From Verrucomicrobiota bacterium (lineage in GTDB: Bacteria > Verrucomicrobiota > Verrucomicrobiia > Limisphaerales > UBA11358), in assembly GCA_049511835.1 (NCBI GenBank), contig JBEKXN010000002.1:11219-75218 (forward strand): DNA of 64,000 nt, given 5' to 3'. The position numbers were made by a program, and so were the translations under genes. The notes below the pieces were generated by a model. It searched no databases and was not told the DNA's origin. It saw nothing but the letters and a program-made list of their open reading frames with translations. This document shows positions 52,311 to 54,227 of the stretch, piece after piece. Numbering within the stretch: the first letter of the stretch is position 1; every line of letters begins with the position of its first letter.

Positions 52311-54227
52311 TTATCCCTTCTGCGCTTCCTTCGCCCAAGTGTCTTTCAGTGTGATGGTGCGATTGAAAATCAAGGTAGGGACGGCTGGCCCAGCCGTCCG
52401 GTCGTCTCGGCGAGATGACCCTACCACGCTGTCTTTATCCAACGCAAAGTAGGCGAGGCGCTCGAATTGATAGCGCAACTCCGACTTTGCGTCTTTCAGG
52501 CTCGGCTCACACTTTGCCGTCACCACTTCCAGCGAGTGCGGGTTGAGCACGGATTTGAAATCACGCTTCGTCTCGCCAGAGCTTTCAGCGGCGGCGGAAT
52601 CATCTTTTTCCGGTTCGGCCTCGGTGAAGAGGCGGTCGTAAAGGCGCACCTCGGCGTCAATCGCGTGCGCGGCGCTGACCCAATGGATTGTCCCTTTAAC
52701 TTTACGCGCCGCCGTGGCCCCGCCACTCTTGCTGTCGAGGTCGGCGGTGCAGCGCAATTCCACAATCTTGCCGGCGGCGTCCTTCACCACTTCGTCGCAT
52801 TTGATGATGTAGGCGTATTTCAACCGGACTTCGCCGCCGGGTTTTAACCGGAAAAACTTCGGCGGCGGTACTTCCTTGAAATCGTCATTTTCAATGAATA
52901 ACGTACGACTAAAGGGAATCTTGCGCTTCCCGGCGTCCGGATCCTCGGGATTGTTGACGGCGTCGAGTTCCTCGGTTTTGCCTTCGGGATAATTGGTGAT
53001 AACGACCTTGATGGGACGCAGTACGGCGAGGCGGCGCAGGGCGCGTTTGTTCAGGTCCTCGCGGATGGCGTGTTCGAGCACAGCCACGTCGGTCAGGCCG
53101 TTGTATTTGGTGATGCCGATATTGTAGGCAAAAGCGCGCAGCGCTTCCGCGGTGACGCCGCGCCGCCGGATGCCGCAGATGGTGGGCATGCGCGGGTCGT
53201 CCCAGCCACTGACGAGTTTTTCGTTCACGAGTTGCATGAGCTTGCGTTTGCTCATGACGGTGTAACCGACACTGAGCCGGGCGAATTCGTATTGATGGGG
53301 CAGGGGACGCGGCAGGTCGAGGTTCTCCAGAATCCAATCGTACAGCGGGCGGTGCACCTCAAATTCCAGCGTACAGATGCTGTGCGTGATGCCTTCGATG
53401 TAATCGCTCAGGCAATGCGCGAAATCGTACATCGGGTAGATGCACCATTTGCCGCCGGTGTGGTGATGGTCGGCGTGGCGGATGCGGTAGATGAGCGGGT
53501 CGCGCATCCAGACGTTCGGCGACGCCACATCAATCTTGGCGCGGAGCGTGCGGGCGCCGTCGGGGAACTCGCCGTTCTTCATGCGCGTGAACAGGTCGAG
53601 ATTTTCGGCCGCTGGCCGGTTGCGGAACGGGCTTTTCTTGGCATTGCGGCGGTATTCGTCGGTTTCGTCCGGCGTCAGGTCGCAGACATAGGCCTTGCCT
53701 TTTTTGATGAGCGCCACGGCGTATTCGTAGATTTGATCGAAGTAGTCGGAGGCGTAAAAAGGTTCTGTGGCACAGGCCTCTGGCCTGTGTTCAGTGGTCT
53801 TTGCTCCTGACTTTTCACACAGACCAGAGGTCTGTGCCACAATAGGGCCAAGATAGAAATCCGGCTTGCTGTTGCTCGTGACGGTTTCCGGCGTTTTGCC
53901 TTTGGGTTTGAGGCCGAGGTTTTTGTCGGCCCAGCCGGCAATAAGCCAGTTCACGTCCTCGATGATGGAGTCCACGTATTCGACGTCTTCCTTGGTCGGG
54001 TTGGTGTCGTCCATGCGCAGGTTGCAGACTCCGCCGAACTCGCGGGCGATGCCGAAGTTGAGGCAGATGCTTTTGGCGTGGCCGATGTGCAGGTAGCCGT
54101 TCGGTTCGGGCGGAAAGCGGGTGTGAATGCGCGGATATTTCTTCTCGGCGACGTGTTTTTCGACGATGTCGCGGATGAAATCGGACGGGGCGGCGGGTGG
54201 CGGATTTTCGGTGTTCGGATTGCTCAT
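52311..54227 (-). CDS. glnS: Glutaminyl-tRNA synthetase
   Basis: Class I motifs HIGH (YLHIGHAKS) and VMSKRKL (KMSKS-like), SDYFDQ, and the C-terminal ...[14 protein letters not shown] as in E. coli GlnRS. Confidence 0.93.
52374..52425. repeat. REP family D copy, in frame near the glnS C-terminus
   Basis: ggtagggacggctggcccagccgtccggtcgtctcggcgagatgaccctacc is translated on the minus strand as [18 protein letters not shown], just before the conserved FNRT. Confidence 0.8.
53766..53840. repeat. REP family C copy, in frame in the glnS catalytic domain
   Basis: tgtggcacaggcctctggcctgtg...cacagaccagaggtctgtgccac is translated on the minus strand as [26 protein letters not shown], just before YASDYFDQ. 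Confidence 0.85.

Follow-up and report, generated by a model that had tools for sequence, protein, structure and literature searches.

How does a dispersed palindromic repeat come to lie in frame inside a glutaminyl-tRNA synthetase (GlnRS), and what has it become there, for the enzyme and for the repeat? The question is raised by a 64,000-nucleotide stretch of contig JBEKXN010000002.1 from a Verrucomicrobiota bacterium (below, the window, with positions counted from its first letter), in which the gene glnS (52311..54227, minus strand) holds a 76-nt imperfect palindrome at 53766..53841 on the same strand. The element is a GTGG-headed doublet of repetitive extragenic palindromes (REPs), that is a REP doublet forming hairpins (REPIN), and belongs to a dispersed repeat family here called family C. 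Very probably it is a REPIN that is translated as part of a functional GlnRS, in a loop that is peculiar to the lineage and tolerates inserts. A first-pass annotation made from the letters of the window had already placed a palindromic repeat in frame in glnS, and this has stood up to closer analysis.

The codons for V130 to T154 coincide exactly with nucleotides 53840-53766, 75 nt giving 25 codons in frame. The two arms of the element (53766-53790 and 53817-53841) have 25 nt each and are 92% complementary, and on the coding strand one reads in turn arm 1 (53841-53817, T-GTGGCACAGACCTCTGGTCTGTG-T), a spacer of 26 nt (53816-53791) and the inverted arm 2 (53790-53766, ACACAGGCCAGAGGCCTGTGCCAC-A). 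Each arm is also a small hairpin in its own right, GTGG-C-ACAGACC-TCT-GGTCTGT-G, a REP of 23 nt with a 7-bp stem and a 3-nt loop, and GTGG stands at the outer end of both (5'-GTGGCAC...GTGCCAC-3'). REPs of the GTAG type are short stem-loop palindromes of 20-40 bp, a size that each arm of 23-25 nt has, and are described as beginning with GT[A/G]G and having 6-8 bp in the stem and 3-4 nt in the loop, with a GTGG variant in Opitutus terrae (PMC3733652). Folded as RNA the whole element reaches −49 to −51 kcal/mol, and relative to dinucleotide-shuffled sequence its z-score lies between −5.4 and −7.1. The rule for REPINs is that arms are conserved and spacers variable, with a location that is nearly always extragenic (bioRxiv 10.1101/2021.07.10.451892). 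The first half of this rule holds well, in that 11 copies aligned from five genomes have invariant arms (GTGGCACAGACCTCTGGTCTGTG and the inverted partner CACAGGCCGGAGGCCTGTGCCAC) and copy-specific spacers of 6-30 nt; the second half does not, as the copies in glnS and in hrpB lie inside open reading frames (ORFs), in frame.

That the palindrome is one copy of many is clear from the window itself. The repeat, GTGGCACAGACC..., occupies six loci there, the glnS copy and five more, and its arm sequence recurs with at most three mismatches at 19406, 19514, 42424, 42455, 50352, 50384, 50725 and 50758, when shuffled sequence leads one to expect none in either case. Family C copies outside glnS are found also in the relatives L161, L081, L167 and L168, and peat metagenomes add further genomic contexts. 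A public and independent peat-metagenome contig shows no difference to the window over 53644-53973, and therefore the element is no assembly artefact; the closest relatives, L161 and L081, have the same element at the same place in glnS. With Rfam 15 no match at gathering score was obtained anywhere in the window, the element itself attracting sub-threshold hits of the long-microRNA-hairpin kind, and no direct repeat of the sort made as a target-site duplication by miniature inverted-repeat transposable elements flanks the element in glnS or the other copies.

The host gene is intact and encodes a GlnRS of 638 residues, with the Pfam domains PF00749, PF03950 and PF20974 and with GlnRS structures returned by a sequence search of the PDB (5bnz at 4e-197; the E. 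coli enzyme 1qru at 6e-189). The class I motifs are in place, HIGH at residues 47-50 and VMSKR at 324-328, as expected of a class Ic GlnRS, and no signature of another class Ic synthetase is present in the 64-kb window. Across some 520 core codons, and in comparison with 12 relatives, dN/dS is 0.06-0.10 at a dS of 0.48-0.74, and therefore glnS is not decaying. The neighbourhood of the gene is syntenic in many contigs (purE, a CDP-alcohol phosphatidyltransferase and peroxiredoxins). An AlphaFold2 (AF2) model, built from 145 sequences including diverse GlnRS, has a predicted local distance difference test score (pLDDT) of 85.5 and a predicted template-modelling (TM) score of 0.83, and superposes on E. 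coli GlnRS-tRNA complexes with a target-normalised TM of 0.95 (4jxz). Compared with the canonical enzymes (E. coli 1GTR/1QTQ and P. aeruginosa 5BNZ), the window protein has all domains and motifs at 48-51% identity and a target-normalised TM of 0.91-0.95, and it differs from them by about 53 extra residues between E. coli positions 93 and 98 and by about 13 extra residues before the FNRT motif.

The larger of these two differences contains the element. In the structure alignments residues 1-100 and 155/158-634 find partners, and 101-154 stay unaligned in every structure matched; W99-A100 pair with E. coli residues 92-93 and Y158 with residue 98, so that the W-x-G and YASDYFDQ segments are only 4 residues apart in E. 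coli, nearly contiguous as the first-pass annotation had it. We take this point, E. coli residues 93-98, to be where the first half of the dinucleotide fold passes to the acceptor-binding domain. In a diverse set of 120 GlnRS the interval from 'W-L' to 'YASDYF' is just 9 residues long in 109. Some Verrucomicrobia have 14-18 in that interval (L004, L008, P0213 and P0227), Akkermansia and Oleiharenicola show intermediate forms of the loop, and Subdivision-3-like relatives have 46-57 residues, made up of a conserved block, a non-repeat linker of 12-16 residues and then 'EPF'.

The expansion of about 50 residues announced by the first-pass annotation is accordingly real in size and has, on comparison of these sequences, two origins. 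Only about 25 of the 53 or so residues are due to the repeat; the segment D101-I129 (53841..53927, minus strand), which has the REPIN at its C-terminal end, is an older verrucomicrobial insertion. This block is kept in 120 of 120 closest orthologs, with shorter or related forms in other Verrucomicrobia and none elsewhere, and is constrained (pN 0.02-0.17 against pS 0.17-0.62, the proportions of nonsynonymous and synonymous differences). AF2 gives residues 101-130 a pLDDT of 82-90 and three beta-strands (104-108, 114-118 and 121-125), places residues 133-150 below 50, and has short strands at 129-130 and 154-155 that shut the base of the loop. In this prediction the older insertion makes a small structured addition to the enzyme, and the REPIN lengthens its tip by a floppy segment. 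The 25 residues themselves are not ancestral, given that orthologs 81-91% identical have something different at the place and distant relatives the non-repeat linker of 12-16 residues. The element was also said to lie in the catalytic domain, and this is right as far as the Pfam envelope goes, yet the loop is lineage-specific and is outside the conserved catalytic core.

What relatives carry at the tip of the loop is the most telling part of the comparison. In a set of 121 proteins, made up of the window's own GlnRS and the 120 orthologs nearest to it (81-91% identical; Verrucomicrobiota metagenome-assembled genomes where labelled), the stretch from 'FYL' to 'EPF' is hypervariable, runs from 13 to 50 residues, and falls into discrete types with at least ten unrelated occupants. 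The DNA of 13 orthologs was read, and in these the flanks GATTTYTATCT and GARCCnTTYTAYGC align cleanly. Family C (type C) accounts for seven proteins. Types Q (VGQASSLS..RQDACPT) and R (GRAGSP..RPT) are found in 20 each, type V (SAGVSPA..RDGCAT) in 16, type A (RSAAVPA..GTGAL) in six and type I (SGILPE..KMxAAR) in four, and the rest is made up of type s (STLNSQPST; 21), type e (SEIRN/SELRTPNSE; nine), type n (GTSNIEHRTSN; seven), type p (PQTPDAK; five), type c (CAVPSAKSSAED; two) and four unclassified occupants. Some are composite, P0069 joining a left part of type c to a right part of type R, and P0073 and P0031 being composite too.

Read as DNA, several of these types have the build of REPs. 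Type Q is a doublet, GTAGGACAGGC...GCCTGTCCTAC, folding at −44 to −50 kcal/mol; type R is GGTAGGG/GGTGGGG...CCCTACC and encloses two hairpins (−33 to −38 kcal/mol), type V has three units of GTAGCGCAGGCGTCCCGCCTGC (−66 kcal/mol) and type A GGAGCGCGGCTGTCCCAGCCGCAGC with its inverted partner (−60 kcal/mol). Types s and e turn out to be in-frame tandem heptamers, (CTCAACY)4, (CGCAATC)4 and (GGAAATC)4. In three peat metagenomes arm 1 of the Q element is covered at about 26-fold excess depth, with many different flanks, and a Q copy lies outside glnS in L085; the R arm of the type seen in L165 occurs twice in the window (17944 and 23356) and again in the glnS of L003 at another position. What this more distant relative has is half an R-type REP (GGCGCGCACGGAGTGACGCGCCCTACC-like) at 5000-5029, at about codon 437, a fourth REP-holding position in glnS. 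In relatives, metatranscriptome contigs continue without a break from the coding flank into the occupant, as seen for the Q, heptamer and p types. That C and Q might be one element diverged in place was considered and rejected, as this would require a joint change in all four half-stems; both are moreover separate repeats elsewhere, and L161 and L167, which hold C and Q respectively, differ at a core pS of just 0.09.

On a neighbour-joining tree built from the masked protein each type of occupant turns up in scattered places, and the types occur in free combination with whatever state is present at three other variable sites. L167 and L168 hold a Q element or a heptamer array in glnS with their family C copies elsewhere in the genome. 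L161 and L167 have 0-2 differences per 60 nt over most of glnS; beginning just past TTTTATCT they are entirely different across the element and for about 70-110 nt on its downstream side, and are then identical again; with the divergence limited to so short a tract, alleles therefore pass between strains by homologous recombination. Single peat samples contain several alleles together, among them a junction of type R and a form that is shorter by 93 nt. The latter was met in run X1 as a low-depth peat contig of about 87% identity that joins ...DFY to FYASDYF across the 53759/53853 junction, skipping 93 nt, and is possibly an allele with no linker at all at the site.

The resident elements are unusually conserved. 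Compared with one another, those of the window, L161 and L081 show 2-3 changes in 75 nt, at a core pS of 0.37-0.47; 0-1 synonymous change is found in 19 synonymous sites (P = 1e-4 to 2e-3), and the codons immediately beside the element have diverged as usual. A recent recombination of a large tract is rejected as the cause by just these flanking codons. In the seven family C orthologs the residues encoded by the arms are nearly invariant and those encoded by the spacer vary. The excess conservation points to a constraint on the DNA or RNA, or to a homogenisation of copies.

The loop, designated site 1, is not the only place in glnS with such content. Site 2 (52374..52425, minus strand, codons 601-618) is REP-like in form, GGTAGGG with two small hairpins and CCCTACC, at a minimum free energy of −32 kcal/mol and z of −3.8, and is common to L161, L166, L167 and L168 at 94-98% nucleotide identity. 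It follows the pattern of conservation of the element at site 1 (0-4 differences in 51 nt), and in the variants of L170 and L171 both hairpins are kept while the stems change on both sides. Without it the protein reads KDSAPGKLV, or in many orthologs just 'SAPGK'; residues 604-612 have a pLDDT below 50 and are predicted to be disordered. The window contains no second copy of the site 2 element. A third REPIN follows 'LDSK' in five orthologs (its DNA was read in L169). At a further position, site 4 (52560-52601, GlnRS residues about 544-554), there is a presence/absence polymorphism of 11-13 residues, predicted disordered, which 66 of 121 possess at scattered places in the tree; as a hairpin this indel was rejected at z −0.14.

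In-frame insertions of the same kind are found in other genes of the window, above all in hrpB (18021..20846, plus strand; Pfam HrpB_C, DEAD and Helicase_C). Two tandem units of 108 nt derived from family C lie in it in frame (19352..19564, plus strand), their left arm being a different stem variant, and a GTTGGAGTTC-type REPIN is in frame at 18567-18621. In the hrpB ortholog of L171 different fillers occupy the same two sites, and an extra REP-like insert is present where the window has none. One repeat family is indeed in frame in both GlnRS and HrpB, in the same orientation and frame and with a shared VAQ...EHRPEACAT peptide, just as the first-pass annotation had it in speaking of a recurrent module in unrelated essential proteins; HrpB is not normally an essential protein, and a frame shared by two independent events, at a chance of 1 in 3, is weak evidence. 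The ORF 1160-3157, which we take to be ispG, has in frame a 14-nt/heptamer palindromic array, SNSELRIPNSEF, at 2196-2229 and a GTAGCCGCGG-type REPIN at 2595-2662 (−45 kcal/mol). The ORF 9855-11579, presumably recJ, has a TCAACYC-type heptamer array in frame at 10396-10436, read as QLSTRNSQPST, and another such array lies between two ORFs at 34500-34527; arrays of this kind fill site 1 of glnS in about a sixth of orthologs. In total the window has at least five REP-like insertions and two heptamer arrays in frame in four housekeeping genes. The REP arms are stop-free in all six frames, which is in part why in-frame survivors are common.

About 870 nt downstream of glnS lies a gene for a REP-associated tyrosine transposase (RAYT; 50940..51440, minus strand), recognised by NCBIfam NF047646 at 89.6 bits (cut-off 80; E 1.7e-25) with a weak match to Pfam Y1_Tnp, and orthologs of it are just downstream of glnS in L082, L165 and L166. 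On one side of it is a cluster of GTAG-headed REPs of the GTAGCGTCGAGCCTGCGGCTCGA family (51484..51595), with a partner at 50898-50931 on the other. That the adjoining RAYT gene causes the hotspot was rejected, as relatives with no RAYT gene within 10 kb also have REPs at the site.

From these observations a route can be proposed. A family C REPIN would have been copied by a RAYT transposase, to judge from such elements generally, and this copy may have landed, or have arrived by recombination, in the tip of the loop that GlnRS already had, a site that would be the start of the acceptor-binding domain, going by the E. coli structure. The copy survives because its 75 nt make 25 codons, because there is no stop in the frame used, and because the ends of the loop are side by side. 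Some 25 disordered residues would then be translated with the enzyme still working, as purifying selection and the model suggest. At the protein level the peptide is most likely a passenger, the thing conserved being the nucleic-acid palindrome and not the amino acids. In the clade the loop is re-used as a landing site that many different repeats have filled, with alleles swapped between co-occurring strains by short-tract homologous recombination.

Several observations weigh against this account of a translated REPIN in a permissive loop. Neither a target-site duplication nor a closely related, truly empty allele was found, and the original insertion event is one that we infer. No transposase is linked to family C: the REPs on both sides of the RAYT gene (50898-50931 and 51484-51595) are of the GTAGCGTCGAGCC family, and copies of family C are found at 50352-50781, which is 160-590 nt further on. 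For types V and A, and for the R form of L164 and L166, no second copy was present within the ±10 kb available, and they are putative REPs by their architecture. The RNA evidence is limited to the alleles of relatives, translation of the 25 residues being predicted. Finally, a purely neutral passenger is not expected to be conserved beyond the level of synonymous sites, as the element is.

A further proposal is that the loop tip, from ...DFYL to EPFYASDYF, is a dedicated landing pad, in which resident palindromes and heptamer arrays give way serially to other repeats. A REP already in place would draw in the next one, perhaps by RAYT activity on the GT[A/G]G heads, with exchange between co-occurring strains by short-tract recombination to follow. 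We regard this as a possibility, on present evidence a doubtful one. Were it true, the loop would be a hypervariable in-frame cassette in an essential enzyme, loops in hrpB and other genes might be likewise, and the conservation of the resident element would reflect selection on the REPIN itself and not on the host protein.

Less likely again is that a nucleic-acid hairpin is selected at this point of glnS and that any REP giving one is kept, be it for a translational pause between the Rossmann first half and the acceptor-binding domain, as a nuclease or gyrase site, or for mRNA stability. The occupants of close relatives do fold strongly (−33 to −66 kcal/mol), the elements change less than synonymous sites do, the site 2 variants keep both hairpins by changes on both sides of the stems, and an empty site is found in 0 of 120 close orthologs, the sole shorter allele being the one low-depth peat contig. 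However heptamer arrays occupy the loop in around 30% of the set (37 of 121), and the three read as DNA barely fold (−4 to −8 kcal/mol); in outgroups that share the host loop, a short linker takes the place of the repeat and forms no hairpin; and equally strong in-frame REPs are found in hrpB and ispG at unrelated positions, which a genome-wide invasion fits better.

An adaptive peptide module, by which VAQ...EHRPEACAT would give GlnRS (and HrpB) a new property at the protein level such as a binding site, is very improbable. The presence of the same peptide in two proteins and the near invariance of its arm-encoded residues in the seven family C orthologs speak for it, but orthologs 81-91% identical have wholly unrelated peptides at the site, the conservation reaches synonymous positions so that the protein does not explain it, the segment is predicted to be disordered, and a shared frame is expected by chance one time in three. 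A decaying or redundant glnS, dispensable through another route to Gln-tRNA(Gln), is hardly credible with dN/dS values as low as those above, an intact ORF with its HIGH and VMSKR motifs, a model that is a complete GlnRS, and synteny conserved in many genomes. A chance palindrome or an assembly artefact has next to no probability, with 7-9 matches observed where shuffles give none and with independent ENA, JGI and Logan assemblies carrying the same element at the same place.

Outside glnS and hrpB, family C is represented in the window by short-spacer REPINs, one at 42424..42479 (plus strand), which is outside long ORFs, and two more at 50352-50408 and 50725-50781. A palindromic unit, TTGTAGCGGCGCTCTGTGAGCGCCGGAAG, at 42387-42423 and at 50688-50724, directly precedes two family C copies and makes with them a composite, conserved between both places, like a bacterial interspersed mosaic element. 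A repeat of 68 nt is present four times (42944-43011, 44379-44446, 50449-50516 and 50819-50886), twice about 40 nt past the family C copies at 50352 and 50725 and twice at a distance of 0.5-2 kb from the one at 42424. Read on the minus strand, this repeat resembles the start of a short ORF (MPDNSFKEIVPDPLNALPKSR, then a stop), and its copies are possibly fragments of the N-terminus of a gene. Further families of the window have the same build as family C, namely GTAGCCGCGG..., GTAGCGGCGG..., GGTAGGGCGG...CCCTACC, GTAGCGTCGAGCC... and GTTGGAGTTC.... Other repetition in the window is of a different kind. At 26100-28150 one large ORF contains five tandem repeats of about 381-460 nt, 62-84% identical, which resemble an array of sensor domains, and a stretch of 66 nt at 31002-31067 is 98% identical to one at 33685-33750, 2.7 kb away, the second covering the start of the ORF 33675-34493; this pair suggests a recent duplication, or a conversion between paralogs.

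Set against known REP/REPIN-RAYT systems (PMC3733652, PMC3116915, bioRxiv 10.1101/2021.07.10.451892), the window has the same head, stem-loop and inverted doublets, several families, and a REP-flanked RAYT gene, and differs in having insertions in frame in housekeeping genes where the typical location is extragenic. The nearest precedent is in the same phylum. GTAG REPs abound in Opitutus terrae, which also leads in the count of intragenic ones (Di Nocera et al. 2013, PMC3733652); its REP dimers encode 20-30 residues in known genes, including a Hrp-type helicase, with some genes hit twice. Intragenic REPs were reported in helicases and, in other species, also in tRNA synthetases, and different REPs at about the same site only for recB of two Xanthomonas species (PMC3733652). 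The likeness extends to the GTGG head variant, dimers in genes, and the Hrp-type helicase as host; in contrast, glnS is not among the hosts listed for O. terrae, and here at least ten occupants are found at one site across 120 orthologs. The Rickettsia palindromic elements (RPE), the classic example of such repeats, are in frame in unrelated housekeeping genes and apparently compatible with fold and function (PMC10969869), and they resemble the present element in that functional respect only. RPE-1 is about 150 bp and some RPEs are of the CGTC superfamily. Their host is obligately intracellular and its genome is reduced; the host here is a free-living peat bacterium with a RAYT gene. In-frame REPs are then already known from Opitutus terrae and Rickettsia, and the element itself is ordinary for its phylum. 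New, to our knowledge, are the scale on which the loop is re-used, the exchange of its occupants by recombination, and the excess conservation of copies within genes, none of which the literature searches found reported.

Overall it is clear that a REP or REPIN, usually held to be strictly intergenic, can ride in frame in an essential translation enzyme with purifying selection on that enzyme kept. One loop with many repeat families in a narrow clade makes a natural system in which to study how REPINs choose their targets and whether an old element attracts a new one. Copies within genes that are conserved above the level of synonymous sites are direct evidence of selection or homogenisation acting on the repeat itself. 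Inserts of this sort also swell the apparent diversity of proteins and give rise to recurrent 'motifs' in metagenomic protein sets, and the hotspot behaviour of the glnS loop merits a dedicated comparative study.

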